In this document: positions 208 through 52,986 of the stretch, piece by piece
Layout: every line of letters starts with the position of its first letter
Position numbering within the stretch: the first letter of the stretch is position 1
From: Dehalococcoidales bacterium
GTDB lineage: Bacteria; Chloroflexota; Dehalococcoidia; Dehalococcoidales; RBG-16-60-22
Reading direction: 5' to 3'
DNA length: 64,000 bases
Assembly (NCBI GenBank): GCA_050018395.1
Contig: JBEKAC010000005.1
Coordinates: 4,794-68,793, forward strand
Made by a program: the position numbers and the translations under genes
The notes under the pieces: generated by a model
Seen by the model: only the letters and a program-made list of their open reading frames with translations
Database searches by the model: none
What the model was told of the DNA's origin: nothing

Positions 208-1089
208 ATGAGCCTTCAATCTAAAATCGAGTCGGGCCAGTTTGCTATCTCCTGCGAGTTCGGGCCTGTCAAGGGCACTGATATCCATGAAATCAAGGAA
301 AACATCGAGATTCTGAAGGGCAAAGTAGACGCCGCCAACGTCACCGACCAGCAAAGCTCCGTGATGCGCATGTCCGGCCTGGCCACAGCAACCCTTTGCG
401 TGCAGGGCGGCCTCGAGCCTATCTACCAGATGACCTGCCGCGACCGCAACCGTATCGCCTTGCAGTCCGATCTCCTCGGGGCGTGGGTGATGGGTATTAA
501 AAATGTCCTGGCTTTGACCGGCGACCTGCCCTCGCTGGGTGACCATCCCCAGGCTAAAGGCGTCTTTGACCTCGATTCTGTTACTTTGCTTCAGGCGATC
601 ACTCGCCTCAACGAAGGCTTCGACCTTTCCGGCAATGAGCTTAAGGGCGCGCCCGCTTTCTTCCCCGGGGCGGTAGTCAAAGTGGAAAACAACACGGAGG
701 CTTCCTTCGAGCTGCAAATCGCCAAAATGCAGAAGAAAATCGCCGCCGGGGCGAAGTTCTTCCAGACCCAGGCCTGCTACGACGCCAAATCATTCGAGAA
801 GCTGATGCGGCGCGTCGAGAAATTCAAGGTCCCCGTGATGGTGGGTGTTATCCCGCTCAGAAATGCTGGCAGCGCCAGATATATGAACGCCAACGTGGCC
901 GGCATACACGTGCCGGAAGAACTGATCGACATCATGGCCAAAGCCGCCAAAGAAGACCGGGAAAAGGTGGGCATCCAGATGGCCGCCGATCTGATCAAGG
1001 CAATGAAGCCGATGTGCCAGGGCGTGCACATCATGGCGGTGGCCTGGGAAAAGAAAGTGCCGGAAATCATGGCGCTGGCCGGACTGTAG
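208..1089 (+). CDS. metF: 5,10-methylenetetrahydrofolate reductase
   Basis: 293 aa; FAISCEFGPVKG, QMTCRDRNRIALQSDLLG and VLALTGD motifs typical of the MetF TIM-barrel family; aaggagg RBS upstream. Confidence 0.85.
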   Translation: MSLQSKIESGQFAISCEFGPVKGTDIHEIKENIEILKGKVDAANVTDQQSSVMRMSGLATATLCVQGGLEPIYQMTCRDRNRIALQSDLLGAWVMGIKNVLALTGDLPSLGDHPQAKGVFDLDSVTLLQAITRLNEGFDLSGNELKGAPAFFPGAVVKVENNTEASFELQIAKMQKKIAAGAKFFQTQACYDAKSFEKLMRRVEKFKVPVMVGVIPLRNAGSARYMNANVAGIHVPEELIDIMAKAAKEDREKVGIQMAADLIKAMKPMCQGVHIMAVAWEKKVPEIMALAGL

Positions 1090-7578: not shown

Positions 7579-9486
7579 CTAAAGCTCAGCAGCCGTGTCT
7601 GGTAATTTTGTTTCAGCCGCCTTCGTTTTGGCTTTCACCGGAATGGGCTTATCCGGCACATCCGGCTTCTCTCCGGAGACTTTCACGATGGCGCTGAATT
7701 TCTCCGGGCAAATCTCTAGGCAGTTGCCGCACTTGACGCATTTTTCCTGGTCGATAATATGGACCATCCGCTTGCCGCCCACGACGGCCCCGGCGGGGCA
7801 TTCGCGGGCGCAGATGCCGCAGCCCTCGCACTTGTCCGGCAGGATATAGTAGTGGATCAACTTGGGGCAGACGCCGGCGGGGCACCTTTTTTCCTCGATG
7901 TGCGCCTTGTATTCGTCCATGAAATAGCGGAGGGTGGTCAGGACGGGGTTAGGCGCCGTTTGCCCCAGGGCGCAGAGCGAACCGGCTTTGATCTCTTCCC
8001 CCAGCCTTTGCAAAAGGGCGATGTCTTCTTTAACGCCTTCGCCGCCGCAGATCCTTTCCAGGATGTCCAGCATCTGTTTGGTACCGATGCGGCAGGGAAC
8101 GCATTTGCCGCAGGACTCCGCCTGGGTGAAGGAGAGGAAATAGCGGGCGACGTCTACCATGCAGGTCTCTTCGTCCATGACGACCATTCCGCCCGAGCCC
8201 ATCATCGAGCCGGCGGCCGTGAGCGATTCGTAATCCACGGACTGGTCGAGGTAGGCTTCCGGCAAACAGCCGCCGGACGGCCCGCCGGTCTGGACGGCTT
8301 TGAATTTCTTGCCGCCGGGGATGCCCCCGCCGATTTCGTAGATAATCTCGCGTAGCTTTATGCCCATCGGCACTTCAATCAGGCCGCTGTTGGCGATTTT
8401 CCCCGTGAGCGCGAAGACGCAGGTGCCCTTGCTTTTATCGGTGCCGATACCGGCGTACCAGTCCGCCCCCCGGGCGATGATGACCGGCACGTAGGCCAGC
8501 GACTTTACATTGTTAATAGTTGTGGGCTTGCCCCACAGGCCGGAGACGGCGGGGTAGGGAGGGCGGGTGCGTGGCATGCCGCGTTTGCCCTCGATGGAGG
8601 CCATCAGCGCGGTCTCCTCACCGCAGACGAAAGCGCCGGCGCCTTCCTTGACGTGGATAGCGAAGCTGAAATTAGAGCCCAAAATATTCTGGCCGAGGTA
8701 CCCCTCTTTTTCCGCCTGCTGGATGGCCAGGCGGACGCGTTTAACCGCCAGCGGGTACTCGGCGCGGATGTAGACATAGCCTTCGGACGCGCCGATAGCG
8801 TAAGCCGCGATGGTCAGGCCCTCGATGACGGAATATGGGTCGCCCTCCATGATGCTGCGGTCCATAAAAGCGCCGGGATCGCCCTCGTCGGCATTGCAGA
8901 TCATGTATTTCTGGTCGCCCGGGACGTTGCGGCACAGCTCCCACTTGGTGCCGGTGGAAAACCCGGCCCCGCCCCGCCCGCGCAGCCCGGAACGCTTTAT
9001 TTCCGCGATGACCTGCTCCGGCGTCAGGCCTTGCAGGATTTTTTTCAGGGAGGCATAGCCGCCCGCGGCGGTGTAGTCCTCGAGTTTTTCCGGGTTAATG
9101 ACGCCGCAGTTGCGCAGGATGATGCGCTGCTGTTTGCTGTAAAACTTGATGTCCTTGTGGTTGGGGATAGCCTCGCCGGTAACCGGGTCTTTGTAAAAGA
9201 GGCGGGTGACGGGCTTACCGTCGCGGAGGTGGGAAGTAACGATTTCCGGCACATCCTCCACCGTGACGTGGGCATAGAAAATGCCTTCCGGCTCGACGAC
9301 GACCACCGGGCCCTGCTCGCAGAAACCGTGACAGCCGGTAAAATCAACCTTAACGCCGGCCAGGCCCTGCCTGGCGATGGCTTTAGATAGCGCCTCCGTA
9401 ATTTGCTGTGATTTGCCGGAGACGCAGCCAGTGCCCTGGCACACGTAGATGGTACGCCCGGCGCTAGCCGGTTTTTCCGCCGTCAC
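7579..9486 (-). CDS. NuoF-like NADH-binding FMN/Fe-S flavoprotein (HydB/HymB/FdhB-type), with N-terminal 2Fe-2S thioredoxin-like and C-terminal 2x[4Fe-4S] domains
   Basis: 635 aa; GRGGAGFSTGTKW, ESCGKCVPCRIG and C-terminal CEGCGICARECP / CVKCGNCLEICP ferredoxin motifs. Confidence 0.85.
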   Translation of the reverse strand: MTAEKPASAGRTIYVCQGTGCVSGKSQQITEALSKAIARQGLAGVKVDFTGCHGFCEQGPVVVVEPEGIFYAHVTVEDVPEIVTSHLRDGKPVTRLFYKDPVTGEAIPNHKDIKFYSKQQRIILRNCGVINPEKLEDYTAAGGYASLKKILQGLTPEQVIAEIKRSGLRGRGGAGFSTGTKWELCRNVPGDQKYMICNADEGDPGAFMDRSIMEGDPYSVIEGLTIAAYAIGASEGYVYIRAEYPLAVKRVRLAIQQAEKEGYLGQNILGSNFSFAIHVKEGAGAFVCGEETALMASIEGKRGMPRTRPPYPAVSGLWGKPTTINNVKSLAYVPVIIARGADWYAGIGTDKSKGTCVFALTGKIANSGLIEVPMGIKLREIIYEIGGGIPGGKKFKAVQTGGPSGGCLPEAYLDQSVDYESLTAAGSMMGSGGMVVMDEETCMVDVARYFLSFTQAESCGKCVPCRIGTKQMLDILERICGGEGVKEDIALLQRLGEEIKAGSLCALGQTAPNPVLTTLRYFMDEYKAHIEEKRCPAGVCPKLIHYYILPDKCEGCGICARECPAGAVVGGKRMVHIIDQEKCVKCGNCLEICPEKFSAIVKVSGEKPDVPDKPIPVKAKTKAAETKLPDTAAEL

Positions 9487-9961
9487 CCAGGACCTCCGTG
9501 ATTCTTTTAGGAGTCATTTTGCCGTAAGTCTCGCCGTCCACCGTCATGGTGGGCGCTAAAGCGCACGCGCCGATACAGGCCACCGTTTCCAGGGTATATT
9601 CCATATCGTCCGTGGTGCCCCCGGCCTTAACGCCGAGAGTCTTTTCTATTTCACCCAGGACTTTGCCCGCGCCGCGTACGTGACAGGCGGTGCCGCGGCA
9701 GACGCGTATGACCTTTTTACCTAGCGGCGTTAGTTTGAACTGGGCATAAAACGTGCTGACGCCGTAGACGGCGCTTTCCGTTAGATTTAAGAACCGGGCG
9801 ATTTCCCGGATGGCTGCGGCCGGCAGATAATGGAAGTGCTGCTGCGTTTCCTGCAGGATGGGGATGAGTTCATGCCGTTCCCCGGCGTGGTGGGAGAGGA
9901 TTCCCTTTAGTTTTTCGGCAACTTCGCTATCGGTCAAGTTATCCGTTACCAGTGGTGTCAC
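9464..9961 (-). CDS. NuoE-like [2Fe-2S] subunit (HydC/HymA-type)
   Basis: 165 aa; VCRGTACHVRGA ... VACIGACALAPTM motif; overlaps the nuoF-like start by 23 nt. Confidence 0.85.
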   Translation of the reverse strand: MTPLVTDNLTDSEVAEKLKGILSHHAGERHELIPILQETQQHFHYLPAAAIREIARFLNLTESAVYGVSTFYAQFKLTPLGKKVIRVCRGTACHVRGAGKVLGEIEKTLGVKAGGTTDDMEYTLETVACIGACALAPTMTVDGETYGKMTPKRITEVLGDGGKTG

Positions 9962-10616
9962 CTCCGGTCTTTGAAAGCCTGACGAGTTTCCAGGCGATTA
10001 CTTCACATAATATTATGATGTCTTCGGCGGGCAGGTAGTCCGGGAGCGAGCTATCGAACATGATGTTGCCGCCCGGCGGCGTCTCCTGATCGCCCCGCCA
10101 GAGCACTACGGTCAACGGCACAAAGGGGAAAGCATCGATGGTGACAGCAATATCGCCGTAGTCCGACCGGTGCCCGCCCAGCGTGGCCGCCGCTTCCAGT
10201 AATTTCTGGGGCTCTTCTTTAAAGGCGTTCACGATGGGGTCGATGGCCCTTTTAACGAAGGCGGGATAATTAGCCGTGCCTTCCTGAAGCTCGTTATACG
10301 CCACGATCTTGCCGGAGAGGGGTTTGCCGGAGGCATGGTTAAAATAGTGCAGTATCAGGATCTTATCGCGCAGCGGCACGGACTCGTCGTTGTTAATCGA
10401 GGCCACCTCGCAGCCCGGCAGGTTTATCCGGTAAAACCGGTTCAAATGGTCGATGACGACGGACTTTTCCGCCGGCAGATAGCGGGCGCCGCTTTTGCGG
10501 CACTGGAGCTCGATATCATTAAAGCCGGCCGTCCGCTCACAGGCGAGCTTGTAAGCCAGCTCGTGGGCATATTCGCTCACGGGTCTGGCGGCTAAAGGGG
10601 GGTTCTTTTTCATCAT
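9939..10616 (-). CDS. DUF3786-like protein (family commonly found next to CFeSP/ACS genes)
   Basis: About 225 aa. N-terminal pattern (...CRKSGARYLPAEKSVVIDHLNRFYRINL...) matches my memory of DUF3786. Start is ambiguous (TTG 10628 or ATG 10616/10613). Confidence 0.5.
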   Translation of the reverse strand: MMKKNPPLAARPVSEYAHELAYKLACERTAGFNDIELQCRKSGARYLPAEKSVVIDHLNRFYRINLPGCEVASINNDESVPLRDKILILHYFNHASGKPLSGKIVAYNELQEGTANYPAFVKRAIDPIVNAFKEEPQKLLEAAATLGGHRSDYGDIAVTIDAFPFVPLTVVLWRGDQETPPGGNIMFDSSLPDYLPAEDIIILCEVIAWKLVRLSKTGGDTTGNG

Positions 10617-10686
10617 TTTCCGTAACAAGTTTTATGCATGTATCTTATCATATTATAACTTATTATCGCTACAACGGTTTTTTGGC

Positions 10687-11565
10687 TCATACTTCCAGCC
10701 AGGAATGCGAATAAAGCGATTCTCCAGCCAGCACTCTGACCGTCCGGGCGTAATTCTGCATTTCTTCAGGTAGGGACACGATATCCGGTTTATCACCATC
10801 CATCATTTTATAAACGAGCTCAATGATGTCCGGCCGCCGTCCGCGAGCGATGGCCATCAGGTCCTGGTCAAAAGCATCGACGATAGCGGAATAAAGCCCG
10901 TAGCGCATAAGCATCACCAGGTAGGTGCGGTTGAGCCAGCCGCGAAGCTCCGCGGGGGCGCCGTTGGAGACATTGGAAAGCCCCACTGTGGACTTGCAGC
11001 CCGGCGCGATTTCCGCCAGCATCGCCAGGAATTCCAGGCAGGCCTTGACCTGGTTGATTTCCACGGAGACCGGGCTGGCGATGGGGTCGATCCAGATCCT
11101 TTCATTTGATATGCCGGCCTGGTTGGCCTGGTAAACGAAGTTGACGGTATGCATTGCCCTTTCGTTGGCGTCGCGCGGCATGCCGTCGTTGCTCCAGAGC
11201 AGGCCGATAAGATCGGCGTTATATTGTTGCGCCAACGCCAGCCCCCGGTCGATACGGCTGGTCTGGAGCGAGACCGAGTTGATTAGTACCTTGTTCCGGC
11301 TAGCTTTCAAGCCAGCTTCCATGGCATCGAGGTTGGCGGTATCCAGGGAAAGCGTTTTATCCGTCACGGTCTGGACGATGTTAACAACCCACGTCATCAG
11401 CTCGTCGCCGCCCTTACGCCCCGGACCGATAGCCAGGTCGATAGCGTCCATGCCAGTATTGGCTTCCGCGATGGCCATTGCCTGGAGCGGCGCGGCATTC
11501 CTTGCTTGAAACGCCGGCCCCAGCACCGGCGAGATAATATTCAGGTTCTCCCCGATGAGAATCAT
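10687..11565 (-). CDS. acsE: methyltetrahydrofolate:corrinoid/iron-sulfur protein methyltransferase (pterin-binding)
   Basis: 292 aa; MILIGENLN..., LDTANLDAMEAGLK, VGLSNVS and INRTYL-type motifs align with Moorella MeTr as I recall it. Confidence 0.85.
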   Translation of the reverse strand: MILIGENLNIISPVLGPAFQARNAAPLQAMAIAEANTGMDAIDLAIGPGRKGGDELMTWVVNIVQTVTDKTLSLDTANLDAMEAGLKASRNKVLINSVSLQTSRIDRGLALAQQYNADLIGLLWSNDGMPRDANERAMHTVNFVYQANQAGISNERIWIDPIASPVSVEINQVKACLEFLAMLAEIAPGCKSTVGLSNVSNGAPAELRGWLNRTYLVMLMRYGLYSAIVDAFDQDLMAIARGRRPDIIELVYKMMDGDKPDIVSLPEEMQNYARTVRVLAGESLYSHSWLEV

Positions 11566-11574
11566 ACCTGCTCC

Positions 11575-12918
11575 TTAAGGTTTCCAGGTCTTGAGATAAG
11601 CCGGAAGGTCGGCGGCGTCCCGCGGCCCCACCATGATTTTCCAGCCGGGCATTTCTTCAGCCAGACCGTCCCTTTCAGCGGCGACGTAGCCCGGAATAAT
11701 GAGCGTGCGGTGCCTGATTTTATCCGTGATGCCGCTTTTCAGGATGGCCGGGCCGATGATATCGGCGGAGAACTTGCCGGCCGCCCAGGAGGTCATCACG
11801 GAAAGCCCCTCGGTATCTTTTACGTAAAGCCAGCCGGGCACCTTGCTGTTCTCGATTTCACCGGAGACGATGAAGTAGGTGAGGGAGAAATTGGAAGTCA
11901 CCATCAGCGGCGAGTTCTCGCCGGGGCTATTGATTTCATAGATGCCCTGTTTGGTGGCCAGCGGGCGCTGCGGGTCGGTATAGAGGTTGAGGCGCGCCAC
12001 CAGCAGGGGGAAAAGGCTTTCGCCGTGAAAATCGGAGAGGACGATGATACCCGCGTACTTGGCGACGAACATGACGGCGATGGTTGCCTCCAGCATCGGG
12101 TCGGTTGTCATCTCGGCGGGGAAAACGATGGTGGGGTAGCCGAGGGGGCGGTATTTCTTGAGCGCGGCGCTGCGGATGATAACCTGGTCTTCCAGCGCCT
12201 GCCGCACGCTCCTCGAGCCCGGGTCCAGCACGATGTTTTTAACGCCGGCGGCGTTCAGTTTGGCGGTCAGAACGGCCAGATCTTCCAGGCCCGCGGCTTT
12301 AGCCACCAAAGGGCAGCCGGTCTCTTTAGCCAGAGCGGCCAAGGCATCCGCGTTATCTTTAGTGGCGGCGTAAAGCAGGGGCTTGCGTTCGGCGCAGGCT
12401 TTGGCGCCCGCCGCCAGGACGTCCACCGTATCGCTCATCAGGATGATGCCGGCGGCGCTCGCGGACTTAACTTTATTCACCAATGCGGCGAATTTAACGG
12501 CGTCGCCTGTCTCGGACTTAAGCGCGACCAGGTCAGCATGCAACATGAGGCCGACGCGTTCGTAAACTAGTGTTTTTAGCTTGTTCAGCCGGGCGTCCAC
12601 CTCGGCGCCGGACATTTTATCCGTGATAAGTATCGCAATTCCAGGTGGGTTCTCGAACCTTTTTTCGTGTCGGAACATCACCGTTTCTCCGCCGATTTTC
12701 AGGGCGGTATCGCCGGTGCCGATGGTGACGGGCAAAATGGGCGGGGCAGCCGCTTCCATCAGTTTTGCTTTAGCTTCCTCCGAGATATGGGGGCACTTAT
12801 TGATATCGGCTTTGCCGGCGGCCAGGCTCATGGCGAAAGCGAGGCAGGTAGGCACGCCGCAATCGCCGCAGTTGGTCTTGGGCAGCAGCTTAAATATCTC
12901 GATGCCGGTCAGCGCCAT
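11575..12918 (-). CDS. acsC: corrinoid iron-sulfur protein large subunit
   Basis: 447 aa; N-terminal LPKTNCGDCGVPTCLAFAMSLA [4Fe-4S] motif. Confidence 0.9.
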   Translation of the reverse strand: MALTGIEIFKLLPKTNCGDCGVPTCLAFAMSLAAGKADINKCPHISEEAKAKLMEAAAPPILPVTIGTGDTALKIGGETVMFRHEKRFENPPGIAILITDKMSGAEVDARLNKLKTLVYERVGLMLHADLVALKSETGDAVKFAALVNKVKSASAAGIILMSDTVDVLAAGAKACAERKPLLYAATKDNADALAALAKETGCPLVAKAAGLEDLAVLTAKLNAAGVKNIVLDPGSRSVRQALEDQVIIRSAALKKYRPLGYPTIVFPAEMTTDPMLEATIAVMFVAKYAGIIVLSDFHGESLFPLLVARLNLYTDPQRPLATKQGIYEINSPGENSPLMVTSNFSLTYFIVSGEIENSKVPGWLYVKDTEGLSVMTSWAAGKFSADIIGPAILKSGITDKIRHRTLIIPGYVAAERDGLAEEMPGWKIMVGPRDAADLPAYLKTWKP

Positions 12919-13079: not shown

Positions 13080-13823
13080 TTATTCCAGTATCGGCTTCAT
13101 GGTCAAAGCGGGATGCCCTTTTTCCCGGAGAAAGGGGAGGACCGTCTCTTCAGTGATGCCTGCTGTTTCATCGGCGATTTTAGCCGGCAGGTCGGGCACG
13201 CCGAGTGCTCTAGCACACGCTGTAATGCGCTCCCCGATTTCCTCCTTGAGCTTCCGGGGCATCCAGACCAGGCGCAGGAGGCCGCCCTCGGCTTTGAGGA
13301 AATTTTCCTGCGTGATGGCACTCACGGCGTGGCCGATGAAACCCGGCGTCTGTTCCCCGCCGCGCACTATTTCCAGTAATTTTCCATAGGTGAAGCCGCC
13401 CGGTGTTTCCCCTTTATACCCCCGGTTAACCGTCATTACCCCGTTGCAGCCGGGTAGGACGGCGGTTACCGCCTCGCTAAGGATACAGGCCGTCGGCGGT
13501 GCGTGCATCAGGCTGTACAGGTTCACCTGTTTAATTCGGCCGTAAGAAATTTTTCGGAAATACTCGTTAACGTCCCGCCATTGTCCCCGCCCCGCATCCA
13601 GCGGTTCGCCTTTGGTAATCGGTGAAAAAGGCCCGTAAGGCTCTCTTTCGCTGACGGCTCTGGCCGTGTGCCAGTTATAGTTGCCGCAGATTCCCGTCTG
13701 CTCGGGCGTGATAATACAGGCATGGCAAGGCGCCAGGGACTGGCATATCGCGCAGGCGTAAAAGGTGTCTGTGCCGGCGTCGGTCAGGGCCGAGGATCGT
13801 TTTTGTTCTACTATCTTGTTCAT
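13080..13823 (-). CDS. stand-alone acetyl-CoA synthase (AcsB/CdhC) C-terminal A-cluster domain, with a degenerate Ni-binding motif
   Basis: 247 aa; CAIC-x8-C-x9-C reproduces the AcsB [4Fe-4S] ligand spacing; GNYNW, QWRDVNEY, NLYSLM, LPGCNG and VWMPRKLKEE match the AcsB C-terminus; CIL replaces the CGC motif. Confidence 0.75.
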   Translation of the reverse strand: MNKIVEQKRSSALTDAGTDTFYACAICQSLAPCHACIITPEQTGICGNYNWHTARAVSEREPYGPFSPITKGEPLDAGRGQWRDVNEYFRKISYGRIKQVNLYSLMHAPPTACILSEAVTAVLPGCNGVMTVNRGYKGETPGGFTYGKLLEIVRGGEQTPGFIGHAVSAITQENFLKAEGGLLRLVWMPRKLKEEIGERITACARALGVPDLPAKIADETAGITEETVLPFLREKGHPALTMKPILE

Positions 13824-13825
13824 TT

Positions 13826-14770
13826 TTATATCGTGAGACCCGCGAGCATCTCTTTGACCAGCTTGACGGCCGCCGGGTGCCGCATGATTAAGACGTCGGC
13901 GCCGGCCAGCAGCAGCAGGGTGGCGGTCATCGCCTCCAGCAATATTCCCCGCTTTTTAGCATCACCCATTTTGGGGTCTTCTTTTGCGGTGATTTTAGCT
14001 TCCTTGGTCTTCCAGGTCTCTTTGGCCAGGTTGCAGATGATGGGCACCTGGAGCTTGGCATCGCCCTGCGTCAGCGCCGCCATGCGCGTCCTTTCCATGA
14101 CGGAGTAGCAGTACTCGATGCCGTAGCCGATGCCGCTGACGGACGTGTCCATGAGCAGCATATTGTCCGGGACGCCGAGGTTACCCAGTAAAATATTGAG
14201 TTGCTTGGCCAGGTTGATATCTATCGGCGTTGAGGCCACGACGATGTGGTTGTTGGCGATGGCCGCCGCCCCGATTTGCTTGTGGTTGGCTTCCACCACC
14301 GGGCCCAGGATAAGGCTCCTGCCCCGGCAGATTTCCGCCGCCGCTTTAAGGACTTCCGTGTCTTTTTCGAGGCTGGCGGTGCCCCAGACTATCAGCGGTA
14401 CGTCGATGGCGTCCGCTACACTTTTAACGATTTTAGCGGCTTCTGCTGCCGGTCGGTTTTTACCATTGGGGTCGGTGCTGGCCAATTGCAGGCAGATCAT
14501 CTCTGCCTGGTAGTCTTTCACGCATTTCCGCGCCCAGGCCACCGGGTCGCCGGTGACGCCGGCAAAGGGCTCGAGGGCGGCCGGCGGCCAGTCTTCCGGG
14601 GGAGAATCATAGACTTCCATGGCGATGCGCGGCAAGCGGGGCATCTTTCCCTCGAAGAGGTAGAACGGGAAGGCCGTCTCTCCCCCCACGGTGACTGCCT
14701 TTTCCCCCCGCCCCAGGGTCACCTCCCTGATTTTGCCGCTGTAAGCCGTCTTCGGCACCTCGAACGCCAT
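13826..14770 (-). CDS. acsD: corrinoid iron-sulfur protein small subunit
   Basis: 314 aa; MAFEVPKTAYSGKIREVTLG...GGETAFPFYLFEG is typical of AcsD; stop is 2 nt from the next start. Confidence 0.9.
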   Translation of the reverse strand: MAFEVPKTAYSGKIREVTLGRGEKAVTVGGETAFPFYLFEGKMPRLPRIAMEVYDSPPEDWPPAALEPFAGVTGDPVAWARKCVKDYQAEMICLQLASTDPNGKNRPAAEAAKIVKSVADAIDVPLIVWGTASLEKDTEVLKAAAEICRGRSLILGPVVEANHKQIGAAAIANNHIVVASTPIDINLAKQLNILLGNLGVPDNMLLMDTSVSGIGYGIEYCYSVMERTRMAALTQGDAKLQVPIICNLAKETWKTKEAKITAKEDPKMGDAKKRGILLEAMTATLLLLAGADVLIMRHPAAVKLVKEMLAGLTI

Positions 14771-14864: not shown

Positions 14865-15752
14865 CTATTTTAGGCCGGCGGCCATTTTGGCGGCTTTGAC
14901 GGTATTCATCATCAGCATGGTGATGGTCATGGGGCCGACGCCGCCCGGAACGGGGGTGATGGCTTTGGCTTTTTCCTTCACGCCCTCGAAATCGACGTCG
15001 CCGACGAGGATACGCTTGCCTTCGGCGGTCTTGCCTACTTCGTTCACGCCCACGTCGATGATGACGACGCCGGGTTTCACCATATCGCCGGTCACGGTCT
15101 TGGGTTTGCCGGCGGCGGCGATGATGATATCGGCGTGCCTGGTGTAAAATGCCAGGTCTTTGGTCCTGGTGTGGCACAGAGTTACCGTGGCGTTGGCGCC
15201 GGGGGCTTTCTGGAGCAGGATATTGGTGATGGGTTTACCCACCAGGTTGCTGCGGCCGATGACGACCACGTCAGCACCCTCTATCTGCGTGCCGGAGCGG
15301 ATGAGCAGCTGCTGGATGCCTTTAGGTGTGCAGGGCACGAAGTCCGCCTCGCCGATCATCAGCTTGCCCTGGTTGACCGGGTGCAGGCCGTCCACGTCTT
15401 TGTTAGGGTTAATATGGTAGACTACGTCTTCCTCGTTAAGGTGCTTGGGGAGAGGCAGTTGGCAGAGAATACCGTGAATCTTAGGGTTCTTGTTCAGCTT
15501 TTCTACCAGGGCTACCACTTCCGCCTGGGTTGAAGTGGCCGGTATATCATGCCGTTCCGAGTACATCCCCAGCTCTTTACAGGTCTTTTCCTTTTGCCCG
15601 ACGTACACCTGCGATGCCGGGTCCGCGCCGACGAGCATGGTGGCCAGGCCGGGCACGATGTTGTGCTTGGCTTTAAGGTCGGCGATTTCTTTCTTTAGTT
15701 CCTCGCGGATTTGGGCGGCGACTTCCGCGCCTTTAATTAATGTTGCGGTCAT
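14865..15752 (-). CDS. folD: bifunctional methylene-THF dehydrogenase / methenyl-THF cyclohydrolase
   Basis: 295 aa; LVGADPASQVYV, LPLPKHL, CTPKG, GRSNLVGKP and PVPGGVGPMT motifs. Confidence 0.92.
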   Translation of the reverse strand: MTATLIKGAEVAAQIREELKKEIADLKAKHNIVPGLATMLVGADPASQVYVGQKEKTCKELGMYSERHDIPATSTQAEVVALVEKLNKNPKIHGILCQLPLPKHLNEEDVVYHINPNKDVDGLHPVNQGKLMIGEADFVPCTPKGIQQLLIRSGTQIEGADVVVIGRSNLVGKPITNILLQKAPGANATVTLCHTRTKDLAFYTRHADIIIAAAGKPKTVTGDMVKPGVVIIDVGVNEVGKTAEGKRILVGDVDFEGVKEKAKAITPVPGGVGPMTITMLMMNTVKAAKMAAGLK

Positions 15753-15901: not shown

Positions 15902-17677
15902 TTAGCCTACATCGTGCAGTCCGTGGATCTTACCGGTCGTAACATCCACATCTACTTTCTTGAATGCCGGGTCGGAACTGGTGGCGGGCATCAGGCTGAT
16001 ATCCCCGGCCACCGGGCAGAGGAACCTGGCGCCGGAGTAGATAAGGACATCGCGGATGGGCAGCGTCCAGCCCTTGGGCACGCCTTTAAGGGTCGGGTCG
16101 TGGGTCAGGGAGAGGTGCGTCTTGACCATCATCGTGGCATAGTCGTTGTATTTCGGGTCGGCCTCGAAGGCCTTGGCTTTATCCGCCGCTGTTGCCGACC
16201 AGGAGACGCCATCGGCGCCATAGACGACCTTGGCAATCTGGTTCACGCGGTCGCGCAATTTCATCTCGTTGGGATAAAGGAATTTAAAATTTACCTTTTC
16301 GTTGCAGGCTTCCTTGACTGCATCGGTCAACTCCTGGGCGCCGGCGCCGCCTTTGGCATAGTGGAACGATATGGCGCAGCGGGCACCCGCTTTTTCGGCC
16401 GCCTTGCGGATAATTTCTTCTTCTTCCTTGGTGTCGGTCGGGAAGCTGTTAACGCAGACTACCGGGTTGATGCCGGAGGCGCGGATGATGTTGATGTGGT
16501 GGATCAGGTTTTCGCAGCCTTTCTCCACCAGGCCGGGCGCCGCTTTCTTATAGGCATCCGGCAGGGGCACACCGGGAGTGACCTTGGGGCCACCGCCGTG
16601 CATCTTAAGAGAGCGCACAGTGGCTACCAGCACCGAGACATTGGGTTTGAGGCCACTGTAGCGACACTTGACGTTCCAGAACTTCTCGAAGCCGATATCA
16701 GAGGCGAAGCCGCTCTCGGTGACATGATAATCAAACATTTTAAGCCCGACACGGTCGGCGATGATGGACGACTGGCCGATGGCGATATTGGCGAACGGGC
16801 CGGCATGGACAAAGCACGGCTGGTATTCCGCGGTCGAGCAGAGGGTGGGATTAATCGTGTTGCGCATCCAGGCCGTCATGGCGCCGGCTACCTGTAGGTC
16901 TTCGGTAGTGATAGGCTTGCCTTTTTTATCATAGGCGACGGTGATTTCACCGAGCCGTTTGCGCAGGTCGGCCAGGTCGGTGACGATGGAGAGGATGGCC
17001 ATCAGCTCGGAGCTGACGGCAATGCCGAACTTGCTCTGCATCATGTAGCCGTCAGTCTTCTGGGTGCCCATGCCGATGATGATGTTCCGCAAGGACTGGG
17101 CGCAGAAATCCATAATCCAGCCCATTTCCACCCGTAGCGGGTCGATGTCCAGGCGGCGCATGTGGCTAAGGCGGGCCAGTTGCTCGTCATCGTAGTTGCG
17201 TTCATGCTGCATCCTGGAGGTCACGGCGACCATCGCCAGGTTGTGGGCGTTCATAATATCGTTGATATCGCCTGTAAGACCCATGGAAAATTCTGTATGG
17301 GGGATAAGCAAAGCATTACCGCCGCCGGCCGCGGTGCCTTTAATGTTCATCGTCGGACCGCCGGAAGGCTGGCGGATAGCTCCGCCGACGCTTTCCTTCT
17401 GGTAGCCGAGGCCCTCGATCAGGCCCATGGTGGTGGTGGTCTTGCCCTCGCCCAGCGGGGTGGGGGTGACGGCCGTCACCTCGATGTACTTGCCGTCCGG
17501 TTTGTCCTTGAGCCGTTCCATGACTTTCAGGAAGTCAACTTTGCCGACTTTCCCGTAAGCCAGGATTTCGTCTTTTTTCAGGCCGAGTTTTTGCTGCCAT
17601 TCGGCGGGGGTGGGCATGTGTTCGCAGGCGGCTTCAGCTATCTGCCAGTCCGCCATCTTTGATGTGTCGTAAGCCAC
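15902..17677 (-). CDS. fhs: formate--tetrahydrofolate ligase
   Basis: 591 aa; [14 protein letters not shown]-loop and full-length FTHFS-like sequence. Confidence 0.95.
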
Positions 17678-17713: not shown

Positions 17714-18298
17714 TTATACATGCGCTTGGCCAGGCATGTGGAATAAAGGGGATAGAAGGTTCGAAATTTGAAATACTTTCCTATTTTCGTATTTTAGCTT
17801 ACTTAACGATAAAGGGCAATGGGGGAAATTACGCTCTTTTTTAGGTAAATGGATATAGCACCCTGTGAGGTTTTCTCCGGGATGGCTCTGCGTTGCTTGG
17901 CGGGGAGGTATAAGCCCCAGTTGCTGCATGAGGTCCAGCCGGTCGTAGTGTTCCCAGGTTTCCAGGATTTTACCGTCTTTAAAGCGGTCGAGGATGGCGC
18001 CGCTCATAGTGACCTTTTTACCGGCAGAAGTGAACGTGCAGAACGTGCGCGTAGCCACCAGGTCGGCCTCCGCCAGGATGTCCTCGATCGTTACCTGAAT
18101 ATCGGGATAAGCGGCGCGCAACCAGGCGAGGAATTTTTTATAGTCGGCGATGCCTTTGACATCCGCCCCGCCCGGCCCGTGGTAAACAAAATCCGGGCGG
18201 AGGCATTCATCCAAAACGGCTAGATTCCCTTCATTGAGCACTTCCGCTACGATACGGCGTTCGATGGTTTTTTGGCGCTTTAACGATGTCGCGTCCAT
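17714..18298 (-). CDS. SnoaL-like / ester cyclase family protein with an unusual ~60-aa C-terminal extension
   Basis: ATG at 18298 with a ggaggtggag RBS; the core (NEGNLAVLDECL...FVYHGPGG...KVTMSGAILDRFKDGKILETWEHYD) is SnoaL-like; the tail runs over the fhs promoter region. Confidence 0.6.
   Translation of the reverse strand: MDATSLKRQKTIERRIVAEVLNEGNLAVLDECLRPDFVYHGPGGADVKGIADYKKFLAWLRAAYPDIQVTIEDILAEADLVATRTFCTFTSAGKKVTMSGAILDRFKDGKILETWEHYDRLDLMQQLGLIPPRQATQSHPGENLTGCYIHLPKKERNFPHCPLSLSKLKYENRKVFQISNLLSPLFHMPGQAHV
17791..17819 (-). promoter_or_regulatory. candidate sigma70-type promoter for fhs
   Basis: Minus strand reads ttgccc-17 nt-taaaat, about 115 nt upstream of the fhs ATG. Confidence 0.3.
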
Positions 18299-18337
18299 TT
18301 TCTCCACCTCCACGCCAGAGTGGGGATCCTGATGAGA

Positions 18338-18710: not shown

Positions 18711-19409
18711 ATGGCTGGAAAAACCTATCCCAGGTGCGCGCACTGTTCTACCAGGGAGTGTGAAAACCGGGGGAGCCAGGCAGGTTCGGCTCCTTCCCTG
18801 CAAAAAACGCCGGCGTTCTGCCCGATGAAACTGATGCCGGAGGCCTATGCCGCCGCCATGGCGGAATATGATAAGCCCGAAGTAAAAGAGTTCGCACGGC
18901 TGGCGTCGGTGCAGGAATTCCAGTGCTACGAGCGCCTGCCGGACGGCCTGAAGACCAAACTGCCGCGCATCGAGGAGACGATACAATTTGCCAGGAAGAA
19001 CGGCTTTAAGAGACTGGGGCTGGCGCACTGTGCTGGACTGGCCTATGAAGCCGGACTGCTGACCGGCATCCTCGAGAATAACGGGTTCGAAGTGGTATCC
19101 GTCCAGTGCAAGACCGGGGCCGTGCCCAAGGAGATGATAGGCATTAAACCGGAGGAGAAGATCGCCGGGCCGGAGATGTGGGAAACGATGTGCAACCCCA
19201 TCGTCCAGGCAATGGTTATCAACGAATCTAAAGTGGATATGGCCATCATGCTGGGGCTGTGCATCGGGCACGATACCCTTTTCATCAAGTACTGCAAGGT
19301 GCCGATGACGGTGCTGGCGGTAAAGGACAGGGTACTGGGCCACAACCCGCTGGCGGCGCTATATGCCGGCAACACGTATTATCAGAGACTGAAAAACAGA
19401 ATCGATTAG
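18711..19409 (+). CDS. DUF1847 metal-binding protein
   Basis: 232 aa; N-terminal CAHCSTREC, GLAHCAGL, MCNPI, LGLCIGHD and VKDRVLGHNP match the DUF1847 pattern as I recall it. Confidence 0.7.
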   Translation: MAGKTYPRCAHCSTRECENRGSQAGSAPSLQKTPAFCPMKLMPEAYAAAMAEYDKPEVKEFARLASVQEFQCYERLPDGLKTKLPRIEETIQFARKNGFKRLGLAHCAGLAYEAGLLTGILENNGFEVVSVQCKTGAVPKEMIGIKPEEKIAGPEMWETMCNPIVQAMVINESKVDMAIMLGLCIGHDTLFIKYCKVPMTVLAVKDRVLGHNPLAALYAGNTYYQRLKNRID

Positions 19410-22307: not shown

Positions 22308-23213
22308 CTAGGCTGGTTTCCAACCTTTATTACGTAAATAAATCACCCAGTAAACCAGAGCGACGAAGAACACGCCGCCGATAATGTTGCCGATGGTCAC
22401 CGGAATCAGGTTCTTTACAAAGAAATTGGCCCAGGTAAGATGGCTATAGGTGGCGACCGTGACATTGGCGGAGGTAACACCCGAGCTTTGCCAGAAAGTG
22501 TCTGACGCGCCGGCTTTGACCAGGATGGAATAGGGGATGAAATACATGTTCGCTACGCAGTGCTCGAACCCGGCGGCCACGAAACCCGCGATGGGGAAGA
22601 TGATGGCGGAAATCCGGCCCAGCACGGTACGGGCGCTGTAGGTAAGCCAGACCGCCATGCAGACCATAGCGTTACACAGAATACCCAGGATTAGCGCCTG
22701 CGCGAACCCCAGGTTAACCTTGCCGAGGCCGATGTTCAGCGCGGTCACGCCCACGGCGCCCTTATCCATGGTGTAGTGCTGGCTCCAGAAAACGAACAAA
22801 GCGGTAGCCACCGCGCCGCACAGGTTCCCCAGGTACACGATTCCCCAGTTGCGCACCACGCGAAACGTAGAAAGCTTGCGGCTGGCCCAGGCCATGATGA
22901 TCAGGTTGTTGCCGGTGAACAGCTCGGCGCCGCCGACGATGACCAGGATCAGGCCGAGGCTGAAGGCGATGCCCCCGATGACGCGCATAACGCCCCAGGG
23001 CATACTAACGCCGCCGGTGGTCTGGGAGATCGTGAAAAAGATACAACCGAGCGCGATAAAAGCGCCGGCCAGCACGGCCAGGGCAAAAGTGCTCAGGAAA
23101 TCAAGGTTGGCTTTTCTAATACCTATCGACTGCGCTTTGGCGGCCATTTCCGCCGGTAACAGCTCATCGAAGGCACTGGTAGGTTCATTGTTATTCTCTT
23201 CCGGTTCTACCAT
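22308..23213 (-). CDS. focA: formate/nitrite transporter family channel
   Basis: About 301 aa; FNT-family TM pattern (LAGAFIALG..., GAELFTGN, FEHCVANMYF); ATG at 23213 is favoured over GTG at 23219 by RBS spacing. Confidence 0.85.
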   Translation of the reverse strand: MVEPEENNNEPTSAFDELLPAEMAAKAQSIGIRKANLDFLSTFALAVLAGAFIALGCIFFTISQTTGGVSMPWGVMRVIGGIAFSLGLILVIVGGAELFTGNNLIIMAWASRKLSTFRVVRNWGIVYLGNLCGAVATALFVFWSQHYTMDKGAVGVTALNIGLGKVNLGFAQALILGILCNAMVCMAVWLTYSARTVLGRISAIIFPIAGFVAAGFEHCVANMYFIPYSILVKAGASDTFWQSSGVTSANVTVATYSHLTWANFFVKNLIPVTIGNIIGGVFFVALVYWVIYLRNKGWKPA

Positions 23214-23422
23214 AAACACCCCCTTTCAGAGTCAATTATATGATATTTAACTGTCACCAACAATACGCCGTAAGTTATAGCACCCTCTACGGCGGGACGG
23301 AGAGTCCGGTAGGCAGATTTATGTATCTACCGGGCGGGCGGGACAATCCGTCGCCAGGGCACAGTAACTATTCTTTGCAGCCGGCCTTTTTTTGCGTTAA
23401 CATTTAAATAGAGGTGTTAAAG

Positions 23423-34112: not shown

Positions 34113-35054
34113 ATGACTACGATGCAGGGAGAACCCGCCACGGTGCTCAGCACTCAACCGAGCATTGATTTTGTGGAAACGCCCTATATCACGAATCTTA
34201 CCAACCGGGCGCTCGATTACATCAGAGCGGGTTTCCCCATCCATCTCAGTGGACCGGCGGGGGTCGGTAAAACGACTCTGGCCATGCACATCGCCGCCCG
34301 GCTGGAGCGTCCTGTAGTGCTGGTCTGCGGCGACCATGAATTCGGCAGCTCCGACCTGATTGGCGGGCTTTCCGGCTATCATAAGAAATTTTTAAGGGAT
34401 AACTATATCCACTCGGTGCTCAGGACTGACGAGAGTATGACCTCGCAATGGGTGGACAGCCGGCTCACCACTGCCTGTCAATACGGGCTCACTCTCATCT
34501 ACGACGAGTTTACCCGCTCACGGCCGGAAGCCAATAACGTGCTGCTTTCCGTATTGGAAGAAAAGCTCCTGCCACTGCCTACCACCCGGGGCGGCGAGAA
34601 TTATTTAAAAGTGCATCCCGATTTTACCGCTATCTTCACATCTAATCCCGAGGAATACGCCGGGGTTTTTAAAAGTCCGGACGCGCTACGCGATAGGATG
34701 GTGACCATCGAACTGGGCAACTTCGACGAAGAAACGGAAATCGCAATTACTCGGTCCAAGGCCAAACTTTCTGCGGAGCAGGCACAATTTGTCGTCAGCC
34801 TGGTGAGGAAGGTAAGGGAGGCTAAGTCTGATAACCGGCTTATCCCCACCGTCCGGGGCTGTATTATCATCGGCAAGATACTAAACCAAAAAGGCGGGGC
34901 CACTAATAACGGCTTTAAACAAATTTGTCTTGATGTTTTAATGCCCGAAGTTTCCATAAAAGACAGGGAAAAGGTCAGTCAGGTAATAGATGAAGCTCTG
35001 CCTGGCTCTCCCCGGATGGAGGTAAATTATGCCCAAAAAAGAAAAAAACGGTAA
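34113..35054 (+). CDS. gvpN: gas vesicle AAA+ ATPase
   Basis: 313 aa; LSGPAGVGKTTLAMHIA Walker A, LIYDEFTRS Walker B; MoxR/GvpN-like. Confidence 0.85.
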   Translation: MTTMQGEPATVLSTQPSIDFVETPYITNLTNRALDYIRAGFPIHLSGPAGVGKTTLAMHIAARLERPVVLVCGDHEFGSSDLIGGLSGYHKKFLRDNYIHSVLRTDESMTSQWVDSRLTTACQYGLTLIYDEFTRSRPEANNVLLSVLEEKLLPLPTTRGGENYLKVHPDFTAIFTSNPEEYAGVFKSPDALRDRMVTIELGNFDEETEIAITRSKAKLSAEQAQFVVSLVRKVREAKSDNRLIPTVRGCIIIGKILNQKGGATNNGFKQICLDVLMPEVSIKDREKVSQVIDEALPGSPRMEVNYAQKRKKR

Positions 35055-35544
35055 GGTTGATGTTGATTTCGGCATGGGCCAGATAAGCCTGGGGGGATTG
35101 TTCAAGGGGCTGGGCAATTTCATGGACCTTGCCTCCAAATTAAGCGAAGAAGGGTATGAGAAAAAGGGTGAGATCAGCGGCTTGCCTAAAGGGGCTAAAG
35201 GGGTTTATGGCTTTAGTATCAGGACGCTGGCAGGTAAGCCGGTAATCGAGAGCTTTGGGAACATTAAGGAAACGGCCAGGGGGCCGGTGGTGGAAGAGGT
35301 CCGGGAACCGATGGTTGATATTTTTAATGAAAAAGACCGCATCCTAGTTATTGCCGAGTTACCCGGCATAGCGGAGAGCGAAATTAAAATCGAGGTAAAC
35401 GGGGATATCCTTAATCTGTCGGCGGCCGGTAGAGACCGGAAATACGCCAGGGAAGTCCTCCTCCCCGCCAGGGTTAAACCGGACTCACTAAAGAGTTCCT
35501 ATAAGAATGGGATTTTAGAAATCACCCTGGAAAAAGAAAAATAG
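35029..35544 (+). CDS. Hsp20/alpha-crystallin-domain protein (GvpH-like), paralog 1
   Basis: 171 aa; [27 protein letters not shown]...[14 protein letters not shown]; overlaps the gvpN end by 26 nt. Confidence 0.8.
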
Positions 35545-35561
35545 CCGGAGGAGATATTTTC

Positions 35562-37700
35562 GTGAGTGTTGCTATTGCGGTCGTGACTCTGCGCGTGGCT
35601 GAAGCAAAACCCCGGGACGTGGGGCGGGGTATCGCCCGGATTGACCCCCGGGACCTGGAAAAACTGGGCGCCGAGGTGGGCGATATTATTCAGGTGGAAG
35701 GCAAACGGAAGACGGCCGCCAAGGTCATGCCGGCCTATGCGGAAGACCGGGGAAAGTCGCTCATCCAGATAGACGGGCTTTTGCGGGGTAATGCCCAGGT
35801 CTCTCTGGATGAAAAGGTCACGGTGCAAAAGGCCAGCTTTTTACCGGCTGAAAAGATAGTACTCAACCCGCTGACTCTGGTGAGGTCCATCAGCCAGGAG
35901 AGAGACGCTAAGTATATCGGCACTTTATTGGACGGGCTGCCGCTGGTAGAGGGGGACACTATCAGGGCCAACCTCTTCGGCACCCGGAGCCAGGATTTTA
36001 CCGTGATCAGCTCTATCCCCAGGGGCCTGGTGCTGGTGCATGCCCGGACCAAAATAGAGGTTAAAGAGAAGACTGAACCTAGGGTTAAAGACTCCAAAAT
36101 ATCCTACGAAGATATCGGCGGTCTGGGAAAAGAATTGCACCGGATAAGAGAGATGGTTGAGCTGCCTCTCAAGTATCCTCAGATATTTGAACGTCTAGGA
36201 ATAGACCCTCCCAAGGGAGTGCTCCTTCATGGCCCTCCCGGGTGCGGCAAAACGCTGATTGCCCGCGCCGTGGCCAATGAAACAGCGGCTTATTTTACCC
36301 ATATCACCGGCCCGGAGATAATGGGCAAGTTTTACGGGGAGAGTGAAGGGCGGCTCCGGGCTGTCTTTGAAGAAGCCAAAAACAACGCCCCCGCCATTCT
36401 TTTCATTGATGAAATCGACGCCATTGCCCCCAAAAGGGAAGAGATGGGCGGCGAGAAGCAGGTGGAAAGAAGGGTGGTGGCCCAGCTGCTGGCCCTCATG
36501 GACGGACTGGAATCAAGGGGCGAGGTAATTGTCATCGGGGCCACCAATATCCCCAACTCTCTCGACCCGGCGCTGCGGCGGCCCGGCCGGTTCGACCGCG
36601 AGATCGCCATCAGCATCCCCGACCATAAAGGGCGCCTGGATATCCTCCAGATTCACACCCGGGGCATGCCCCTGGCGCAGGATGTCGACCTGGAAAGGCT
36701 TTCCCAGATTACTCATGGCTTTGTCGGGGCCGACCTGGAAGCCTTAAGCCGCGAGGCGGCGATGAATGCCCTCAGAAAAATAATGCCCAACATCGATTTT
36801 CAGCTGGACGAGATTCCGTATGAAACTCTCTTGAAACTGGAAGTAACGATGAATGACTTCACCGAGGCGCTTAAAGAGGTGGAACCCTCGGCGATTCGTG
36901 AGGTCTTTGTCGAGGTCCCCAACGTAAGATGGGAGGATGTCGGCGGCCTGGACGAAATGAAACAAAAATTAGTTGAGGCCGTGGAATGGCCGCTACGCTA
37001 TCCTCACCTGTTCCAGGAGGCCAACGTCAATCCTCCTAAAGGTATTCTCCTTTCCGGCTCACCGGGGACGGGAAAGACCCTGGTCGCCAAAGCGCTGGCC
37101 CATGAAAGCGAGGTAAATTTCATCTCGATAAAAGGCCCCGAGCTGATATCAAAATATATCGGCGAATCGGAAAGGGGCGTGAGAGAGATATTCCGGAAAG
37201 CCAAGCAGGCCAGCCCCTGCATTATCTTCTTCGATGAGTTTGATTCACTGGTGCCGGAACGCGGGACCAGCGATAATTCACAGGTTACCGAGAGAGTTAT
37301 CAGCCAGTTCCTCACCGAGCTCGATGGGCTGGAAGAGCTTAAAGGTGTACTGGTCCTGGCGGCTACCAACAGAAAGGACCTCATCGATTCCGCCATCGTG
37401 AGGACGGGCCGGTTTGATTTCACCCTGGAGTTCTCCTTACCTGATGAAAAGGCCCGTCGGGAAATATTTGGCATTCATGCCAGGGGCAAACCCCTCGCTC
37501 CTGACATCAATCTGGAAGTCATGGCCCAGAAAACAGAAGGTCTGGCGGGTTCGGATATCGAGGTCATCTGCCGCGAAGCCGCCATGATAGCTATCAGGAC
37601 GTTTATCAAAAATGAAGACAAGAAAGGCAAACTCAAAATTACCAGGCAGCATTTTGAAATGGCCATTGATTGGTTAAAAGCACAGAAAGGGGAAGAATAA
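35562..37700 (+). CDS. CDC48/VCP/VAT-type double-ring AAA+ ATPase
   Basis: 712 aa, GTG start. N-domain is [37 protein letters not shown]. Two AAA modules: [25 protein letters not shown] and [25 protein letters not shown]. Confidence 0.9.
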
Positions 37701-38456: not shown

Positions 38457-38704
38457 CCGGATTACTATTTTCTGTCCTCGGTGTCCCCGTCACTCTTGCC
38501 AAGGAGATAATGGGCAAGCTTAGAGACGAGATTGACAAAGAACGCCTGATTACTGAAGAGTCGATTAAACAGAGACTCCAGCAGCTGCAACTACTGCTGC
38601 GGGACGGCGAGTTGAATGAAGAGGAATACGAAGGCATAGAGGAACAGCTTATAGCCAGGTTGAAGGCAGTAAGGGAATACCAAAAGAGCCAGGAGGTTAA
38701 ATAA
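38450..38704 (+). CDS. gvpG: gas vesicle protein G
   Basis: 84 aa; hydrophobic N-terminus then EEEYEGIEEQLIARLKAV, typical of GvpG; overlaps gvpF by 7 nt. Confidence 0.75.
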   Translation: MLTGLLFSVLGVPVTLAKEIMGKLRDEIDKERLITEESIKQRLQQLQLLLRDGELNEEEYEGIEEQLIARLKAVREYQKSQEVK

Positions 38705-39079: not shown

Positions 39080-39097
39080 AAAGGCGGGAACGTTAAA

Positions 39098-40124: not shown

Positions 40125-40130
40125 GAGCCT

Positions 40131-40457: not shown

Positions 40458-40489
40458 TCGGGGAAAAGAACCTCTTGGGAGGCATATAA

Positions 40490-52063: not shown

Positions 52064-52064
52064 C

Positions 52065-52985: not shown

Positions 52986-52986
52986 A

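Follow-up and report, generated by a model that had tools for sequence, protein, structure and literature searches.

A stand-alone A3 domain of acetyl-CoA synthase with a lost nickel site at the acsB position of a Dehalococcoidales C1 operon

Bacterial acetyl-CoA synthase (ACS, AcsB) consists of the domains A1, which docks carbon monoxide dehydrogenase (CODH) and carries the CO tunnel, A2, which binds CoA, and A3, which holds the A-cluster. Its chemistry requires a Ni pair held by C595-G596-C597 and C509 (Moorella numbering), the flexible Phe512 near the proximal Ni together with the A1 alcove and tunnel for CO, and large A1-A2-A3 domain motions (PMC12289521; bioRxiv 10.1101/2024.08.05.606187), as well as the CoA-binding A2 residues Trp405, Arg383 and His386, in Clostridium autoethanogenum numbering (bioRxiv 10.1101/2024.08.05.606187). 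Cryo-EM and cross-linking place the corrinoid iron-sulfur protein (CFeSP, also CoFeSP) on ACS mainly via A3, the small subunit being anchored on A1 and A3 and the [4Fe-4S] domain of the large subunit on A3, and in the bound state the B12 ring hydrogen-bonds ACS residues while swinging toward the A-cluster (PMC12289521; bioRxiv 10.1101/2024.08.05.606187; preprint on the archaeal acetyl-CoA decarbonylase/synthase, PMC13370988). The present analysis concerns an open reading frame (ORF) of 247 aa that stands between the CFeSP genes acsD and acsC in 64,000 nucleotides of a Dehalococcoidales bacterium (contig JBEKAC010000005.1 of assembly GCA_050018395.1; this whole stretch is called the window, and its features are given in Table 1), and that corresponds to an A3 domain without the Ni-binding motif.

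The window protein shares the fold, the spacing of the cubane cysteines and the position beside CFeSP genes with the A3 domain of bacterial AcsB from Moorella thermoacetica, Carboxydothermus hydrogenoformans and C. autoethanogenum (1OAO, 1MJG, 1RU3, 6YTT), but A1 and A2 (~480 residues), Phe512 and the Gly-Cys pair at the Ni site are missing from it, and it fails the NCBIfam equivalog cut-offs. A second known system to compare is the full-length AcsB of Dehalococcoidia that lack CODH, such as Dehalococcoides mccartyi, which belong to the same order and have the same kind of operon (fhs, folD, acsD, acsB, acsC). According to two papers that summarise Zhuang et al. 2014, D. mccartyi has an incomplete Wood-Ljungdahl pathway in which AcsB cleaves acetyl-CoA and the methyl group passes via CFeSP to the core methionine synthase MesB (PMC7005905, PMC7857596). 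The Dehalococcoidia AcsB keeps Cys-Gly-Cys (CGC) and all three domains, whereas the window protein does not, and the window operon, unlike that of D. mccartyi, has an AcsE-like methyltransferase (MeTr) and a nearby methylene-tetrahydrofolate reductase (MTHFR). Loss of the N-terminal domain is tolerated in archaeal CdhC and in the two-domain (A2-A3) CdhC-like clades of Chloroflexota described in July 2026 (PMC13370988), so that the architecture is plastic in this phylum; those forms keep A2, work with CODH and have, as far as described, a functional A-cluster, in contrast to the A3-only and Ni-less window protein, and the text of that preprint makes no mention of A3-only or Ni-less forms. Engineered C-terminal ACS constructs show that the isolated domain folds alone and carries the A-cluster (PMC5298270; 3GIT, 3S2X, 5GOL), but these retain CGC, whereas the window gene is natural and encodes Cys-Ile-Leu at the site. 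The searchable literature yielded no account of A3-only or Ni-less ACS forms.

The sole Pfam domain of the 247-aa protein is PF19436 (ACS_CODH_B_C, ACS/CODH beta subunit C-terminal), which covers residues 8-246 and profile positions 6-245 of 245 with a score of 288.1 bits against a gathering threshold of 25, and there is no match to PF03598 (CdhC), the A2 domain that binds CoA/acetyl-CoA. Only the last ~240 positions of the full-length NCBIfam ACS models align to it, and the equivalog cut-offs are missed (318.7 against 800 bits for NF040764; 197 against 356 bits for TIGR00316). Searched against the PDB with phmmer, residues 8/9-246 match the A3 domain of C. hydrogenoformans, Moorella and C. 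autoethanogenum ACS with E-values of ~1e-69 to 1e-66; in Moorella (1MJG/1OAO) residues 8-246 pair with chain residues 490-729 at an offset of 482, which presumes a single indel near query residue 210, where the displayed alignment has it. An AlphaFold2 model based on a 41-sequence alignment has a mean predicted local distance difference test score (pLDDT) of 92.3, with disorder limited to residues 1-10, and superposes on solved ACS A3 domains with template modelling (TM) scores of 0.93-0.94 and a root-mean-square deviation of 1.0-1.1 Å over 235-238 columns at 44-49% identity. By these alignments the protein is an A3 domain only, without A1 and A2, which agrees with the preliminary description of the ORF as ACS's C-terminal domain alone. 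It can be assigned to the PF19436 domain family and lacks the marks of the ACS enzyme family, namely CGC, A2, Phe512 and scores above the equivalog cut-offs.

At the offset of 482, C24, C27, C36 and C46 correspond to the [4Fe-4S] ligands C506, C509, C518 and C528 of Moorella, with the 3/9/10 spacing that had been noticed from the letters; an additional cysteine, C33, is not conserved. The alignment is gapless before query residue 210, and T111-A-C113-I-L115 stands opposite T-S-C-G-C of C. hydrogenoformans ACS, so that C113-I114-L115, 67 residues past C46, takes the place of C595-G596-C597. Cys-Gly-Cys is not present anywhere else in the protein. In an alignment of 121 sequences (120 homologues and the query) the Ni-site columns read CGC in 110, and all of these canonical sequences have Phe at the position of Phe512, which is Leu30 in the window protein. 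The earlier reading that the cubane ligands and the first Ni-site cysteine are kept, with the Gly-Cys pair and the CODH-docking domain gone, thus held in every respect tested. It had also equated the 223 residues from the first cysteine to the C-terminus with those of Moorella; the count is right, but the equality is partly coincidental because the alignment holds one indel.

Among the features that ACS chemistry requires, only the equivalents of C509 and C595 remain in the window protein. Acetyl-CoA synthase/decarbonylase activity has very probably been lost, and the protein would be unable to make or cleave acetyl-CoA because CO, CoA and the Ni pair could not be bound. The exact protein is named 'hypothetical protein ABR886_02215' (Dehalococcoidales metagenome-assembled genome, MAG) at NCBI and 'acetyl-CoA synthase' at JGI; the latter label would credit the genome with the carbonyl branch of the Wood-Ljungdahl pathway or with acetyl-CoA cleavage, which is almost certainly impossible with this gene.

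The proteins of the window operon were mapped onto 165 related loci listed from scans of genome and metagenome contigs. The full order Fhs-FolD-AcsD-AcsB (735 aa, CGC)-AcsC-MeTr-DUF3786-NuoE-NuoF is found in 23 relatives and partial versions in many more. The window follows this canonical Dehalococcoidales order, with the short gene at the AcsB position and flanked directly by acsD and acsC, as in canonical operons. ACS ORFs in the survey are mostly of full size (119 of the 129 complete ones have 700-760 aa), and 160 of the 165 matches read CGC. Judged by gene order, the short gene and full-length acsB are positional orthologs. Against canonical operons, the flanking proteins of the window reach maximum identities of 82-88% (medians 64-77%), whereas the window A3 attains no more than 59% (median 54%), and 52-59% against operons in which AcsC is ~80% identical. 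As a calibration, pairs of canonical operons with AcsC 80-85% identical have A3 domains that are 87% identical, with a minimum of 80%. A3 is normally the slowest-evolving part of the operon, and in the window lineage it has undergone ~3.5 times more change than expected.

The stop codon of acsD (TAA) and the ATG of the short gene are separated by 2 nt, and the 25-45 nt that canonical operons have between acsD and acsB, including an AAGGAGG ribosome-binding site, are missing, along with ~480 acsB codons. The short gene is apparently translationally coupled to acsD. In full-length relatives the aligned counterpart of its N-terminus (MNKIVEQK) is the A2-A3 linker (VNKILEKA); the idea of a conserved internal Met at the truncation point was not upheld, as these relatives have Val/GTG there, within the linker. 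No A1 or A2 coding remnant was found in any frame of the window, which a full-length relative matches only by its residues 475-734 (tblastn).

The four nearest non-identical homologues, which have 247-257 aa and are 63-70% identical, carry C-V-L or C-L-L as their Ni-site motif and keep all four cubane cysteines. Together with the window protein they form one clade on a long branch, to which P0060 (246 aa, C-N-Q) is possibly sister. The clade as a whole reads C-[I/L/V]-L, with C113 and Leu115 invariant in all five members, and has L or Q at the Phe512 position. These five lineages share 63-77% mutual identity and intact ORFs of 247-257 aa, 132 of the 247 positions are invariant, and gene order is identical to that of the window in the two members with known context. 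Comparison of the window gene with L001, the one clade member with readable DNA, gave nonsynonymous and synonymous divergences of dN = 0.27 and dS = 1.11 and a dN/dS of ~0.25, a value that is approximate because dS is near saturation; the adjacent acsD fragment gave ~0.12 in the same comparison. The short gene is under purifying selection, weaker than that on acsD. Canonical ACS sequences have 120 positions with a conservation of at least 95%. The whole clade of five retains the canonical residue at 69 of them, and four or more members depart from it at 37; 11 of these 37 are fixed to one new residue throughout the clade, including C597L, T594A, K627T and K656N (Moorella numbering), and the clade-specific fixed substitutions include no new conserved Cys or His. 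The pattern indicates accelerated change in the A3 of this lineage followed by new constraint. The matches listed from scans of genome and metagenome contigs with the window protein were all canonical relatives (51-59% identical), with no further clade member among them.

Loss of the Ni site is not confined to this clade. A profile search was run against one representative per 50%-identity cluster (1.84 billion representatives of ~15 billion proteins) and the best 150 matches were tabulated. Here the clade itself was merged into a canonical cluster at 50% identity, and therefore no separate deep family appeared. The motif is covered in 140 of these matches, of which 98 read C-x-C (81 CGC, 11 CSC, 4 CRC, 1 CAC and 1 CHC) and 42 lack one or both cysteines, some of the assignments resting on automatic alignment of divergent or partial sequences. 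All four cubane cysteines are kept in 40 of the 42, and Phe512 is usually replaced as well. The phenomenon is therefore broad, and loss of the Ni site with retention of the cubane is, as far as these alignments can be read, clearly a recurrent and polyphyletic pattern. Wherever context is available, the degenerate forms lie beside CFeSP genes.

The forms can be arranged as a natural series in which one of the oldest metalloenzymes is reduced by stages, at a single conserved place in the operon and with the cubane present throughout: first the full-length protein with CGC; next forms that lack A1 and have a degenerate Ni site (L094, P0030, P0100); last the Ni-less forms reduced to A3 (the clade, P0060, P0167). 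L094 lacks A1 only, matching residues 316-735 of a canonical relative at 82%, with Phe512 replaced by Val, and is flanked by acsD and acsC genes 78-83% identical to those of the window; it resembles a young stage in this reduction.

P0167 (L172 2412-3239) is an independent stand-alone A3 with Ser-Asn-Leu at the Ni site and intact cubane cysteines. It comes after acsC and a CooC/CbiA-type ATPase and before an FTCD_C folate enzyme. The pairing of a nickel-insertion-type ATPase with a Ni-less domain is odd.

The window protein appears to be a pseudoenzyme, in that its catalytic residues are lost while fold, ORF and purifying selection are kept across lineages. As a natural, selected derivative of ACS, it would work like none of the described forms. 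The domain and ligand losses, the orthology by position, the accelerated and then constrained evolution and the recurrence in other lineages lead us to infer that it binds a [4Fe-4S] cluster, docks to CFeSP and has an accessory role. On balance, the reading to be preferred is that of a non-catalytic Fe-S pseudoenzyme that serves as an accessory subunit and still docks to CFeSP. A deletion would have removed A1 and A2 from acsB in one Dehalococcoidales lineage, and the two-nickel site of the leftover A3 would have been replaced by the hydrophobic Cys-[Ile/Leu/Val]-Leu. The remnant most probably still folds as A3 with an ordinary four-cysteine [4Fe-4S] cluster, and was probably kept for docking onto AcsC/AcsD, stabilising or positioning the mobile corrinoid domain. 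Since CFeSP docks mainly via A3, an A3-only protein would keep two of the three anchor points, and the maintenance of A3 under selection after Ni loss suggests a contribution to CFeSP beyond catalysis.

The methyl branch between formate and methyl-CFeSP is locally complete in the window (MTHFR, FocA, Fhs, FolD, MeTr and CFeSP genes), and the operon may run this branch only, in which case the methyl group would pass to or from a partner that is not acetyl-CoA; a core methionine synthase of the MesB type, which depends on CFeSP, is one example. Methyl supply from formate via the folate route would make Ni chemistry dispensable and leave CFeSP essential. There is no mesB gene in the 64-kb window and no CODH among its ORFs of at least 500 aa, seven of which were assigned by Pfam, a 578-aa one (43234-44970) being only read as a membrane transporter. 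Several points weigh against an accessory docking subunit. One of the three known CFeSP anchor points, that on A1, is gone; the invariance of C113 in the clade is not obviously explained by a purely structural role; dN/dS is approximately twice that of the neighbouring gene, and constraint is therefore weaker; and a second, canonical acsB outside the window is possible, so that the consequence at the level of the pathway is uncertain.

It is rather unlikely that the remnant is instead a cubane-only redox partner, whose cluster reduces inactive Co(II) of the corrinoid to Co(I) and which might draw on the NuoE/NuoF-like module at the operon end, partly replacing the ATP-dependent activator RACo. 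All four cubane ligands are kept in every clade member and in nearly all of the degenerate forms of the profile search, and known complexes bring cobalt to within a few ångströms of the A-cluster face of A3 (6.7 Å Co-Ni). No RACo homologue is found anywhere in the 64-kb window, while such a gene is present in 24 related loci, in 17 of which it stands ~1.3-1.7 kb into the locus and upstream of the C1 genes; RACo could, however, be encoded elsewhere in the genome, and the operon of P0030 pairs a degenerate ACS with RACo. The NuoE/F-like genes do lie in the same operon, but the module is not specific to the remnant, because relatives with full AcsB carry the same genes. Reduction of Co(II)-CFeSP at ~-500 mV from NADH would require energy coupling, and the window protein has no ATPase domain.

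A non-canonical site in which the bridging Cys27 and Cys113 hold a single metal beside the cubane, and which transfers the methyl group of methyl-CFeSP to an acceptor other than CO/CoA, is improbable. Only two of the three thiolates of the proximal site are left, bulky aliphatic side chains invariably occupy positions 114 and 115, where they would fill the site rather than open it, and no new Cys or His has become fixed in the clade. C113 is nevertheless invariant in the five clade members and in P0060, despite the loss of the neighbouring Gly and Cys and a synonymous divergence of more than one per site, and the canonical proximal Ni, held by C509, C595 and C597, is the methyl acceptor (structures such as 1OAO and 1MJG). 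Many degenerate forms have lost the first cysteine also (SSL, SPL, SNL, GNC), which argues that this residue is not generally needed.

Decay of a truncated acsB without function, drifting to deletion, would account for the missing catalytic domains and ligands, the ~3.5-fold acceleration of A3 relative to the flanking genes and a dN/dS above that of acsD, but is very improbable, as a dN/dS of ~0.25 at a dS of ~1.1 lies well away from neutrality, five lineages (six with P0060) have intact ORFs that agree in length and start position, and all cubane cysteines are retained along with 69 of the 120 near-invariant canonical positions and the 132 invariant in the clade. By these measures the gene is not a pseudogene. 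The preliminary description had left open a single-Ni or otherwise non-canonical A-cluster, a cubane-only electron-transfer or scaffold partner of CFeSP, and a decayed enzyme; the evidence favours the scaffold or CFeSP partner and counts against simple decay, and a single-metal site is possible and unsupported.

That the ORF derives from a full-length, CGC-bearing acsB shortened by a sequencing or assembly error is practically negligible as an explanation: no support for it was found, the gene shows no nucleotide difference from the window in the six independently assembled contigs compared, the exact protein is on record on nine contigs (separate JGI, ENA and Logan samples), and the ORF has its own start directly after acsD in a window free of A1/A2 remnants. 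A superficially similar case, L149 2-1137, with a 256-aa CGC ORF, is indeed a frameshifted canonical gene, A2 running on upstream in another frame, and was rejected as a 'truncated but Ni-binding' stage. The 568-aa AcsB of L013 (8524-10732) was likewise rejected as an intermediate, its overlapping ORFs pointing to a frameshift in a long-read MAG. Such frameshifted canonical genes in public assemblies call for caution in surveys of ACS domain architecture from MAGs.

In one contig with the identical short gene (L170 2101-4316) the place of acsC downstream is taken by two other genes, of 207 aa (opposite strand) and 464 aa, which suggests a strain-level rearrangement or a chimeric assembly.

Ni-less A3 domains that retain the cubane, rather than being scattered wreckage, might make up a recurrently evolved and unrecognised class of Fe-S proteins that are accessory to CFeSP and have their own task, a proposal that is tentative and on the whole doubtful. 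Such a task could be to gate or park the corrinoid domain, or to pass the methyl group of CFeSP on to an acceptor other than ACS, for example the MesB-type core methionine synthase. A3 would then have a nickel-independent function, latent in canonical ACS too, and an 'acetyl-CoA synthase' annotation would in many cases, in Dehalococcoidia and in other metagenomic genomes, not mark a working acetyl-CoA pathway.

Table 1. Features of the window and degenerate ACS forms at other loci; coordinates are window positions unless a locus is named.
Feature	Coordinates	Strand	Length	Basis or remark
Stand-alone ACS A3-domain gene	13080-13823	-	247 aa	ATG start; Ni site lost, cubane ligands kept
Codons of Cys24, Cys27, Cys36, Cys46 ([4Fe-4S] ligands)	13686-13754	-		Alignment; invariant in every homologue of the 120-homologue set
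Codons 113-115, TGT ATC CTT (Cys-Ile-Leu), replacing Ni-binding Cys-Gly-Cys (Moorella 595-597)	13479-13487	-		Gapless alignment
Codon 30 (Leu), position of flexible Phe512 beside the proximal Ni	13734-13736	-		Alignment
Junction of acsD stop TAA, 2 nt and ATG of the short gene	13821-13828	-		Sequence comparison with canonical loci
acsD, CFeSP small subunit	13826-14770	-	314 aa	PF03599; median 73.5% identity to canonical operons
acsC, CFeSP large subunit with N-terminal Fe-S domain	11575-12918	-	447 aa	PF04060 and PF03599; up to 82% identity to canonical operons
Pterin-binding methyltransferase (MeTr), AcsE-like	10687-11565	-	292 aa	PF00809
DUF3786 protein, conserved operon member	9939-10628	-		Pfam and synteny
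NuoE-like flavin/Fe-S subunit, operon end	9464-9961	-		Pfam and synteny
NuoF-like flavin/Fe-S subunit, operon end	7579-9486	-		Pfam and synteny
folD	14865-15752	-		Among first operon genes
fhs	15902-17677	-		First operon gene
MTHFR, apart from the operon	208-1089	+		Family search
Formate/nitrite transporter, FocA type	22308-23219	-		Family search
Degenerate ACS L094	L094 3042-4301		430 aa	A1 lost; CGF; 82% identical to canonical AcsB; flanks ~80% identical to those of the window
Degenerate ACS P0030			423 aa	GNC; operon also holds RACo and MTHFR
Degenerate ACS P0100			421 aa	CSY; between acsD and acsC
Degenerate ACS P0060			246 aa	CNQ; directly after acsD
Degenerate ACS P0167			275 aa	SNL; 40% identical to the window protein; beside acsC, CooC-like ATPase and folate enzyme
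Gas-vesicle cluster, GvpN-like AAA_5 ATPase	34113-35054	+		
Gas-vesicle cluster, Hsp20-like genes	35029-35544, 39558-40124	+		
Gas-vesicle cluster, CDC48-type double AAA ATPase	35562-37700	+		
Gas-vesicle cluster, GvpL/GvpF genes	37701-38456, 40490-41656	+		
Pilus locus, DUF7289 protein	50052-51296	-		
Pilus locus, two T2SSF/FlaJ-like membrane proteins	52065-53907	-		
Pilus locus, T2SSE/FlaI-like ATPase	53904-55664	-		
Pilus locus, pilin with archaeal Pilin_N signal	55836-56282	-		

The genes for DUF3786, the NuoE-like and the NuoF-like protein close the C1 operon of the window (7579-10628) and those of the 23 full-order relatives (L009, L014, L067 and others), and could possibly serve MTHFR or CFeSP as a redox module linked to NAD(P)H. 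The searchable literature held no relevant account of DUF3786, which is mentioned only in an unrelated context. MTHFR lies ~6.5 kb from the operon end in the window, and a homologue (47-67% identical) is found shortly downstream of MeTr in 38 related loci (L028, L029, L042 and others), at least 13 of which also carry DUF3786 and NuoE/NuoF. The idea that DUF3786-NuoE-NuoF replaces a missing MTHFR was rejected in view of the MTHFR gene of the window and of these 38 loci. At the other end of the operon, a SnoaL-like protein (17714-18313, minus strand) is encoded immediately upstream of fhs, with a DUF1847 protein (18711-19409, plus strand) beside it on the other strand; the P0002 contig has a SnoaL-like gene (143 aa) in a similar position, with a 92-aa gene between it and fhs.

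Elsewhere in the window, a second 247-aa ORF (45181-45924) and its 313-aa neighbour were considered as a paralogous pair and rejected; their translations read as an ABC-transporter permease and ATPase, and the match in length is coincidental. The window further includes a gas-vesicle gene cluster (34113-41656, plus strand) in this Dehalococcoidales genome and an archaeal-type type IV pilus locus (50052-56282, minus strand) in a bacterium.

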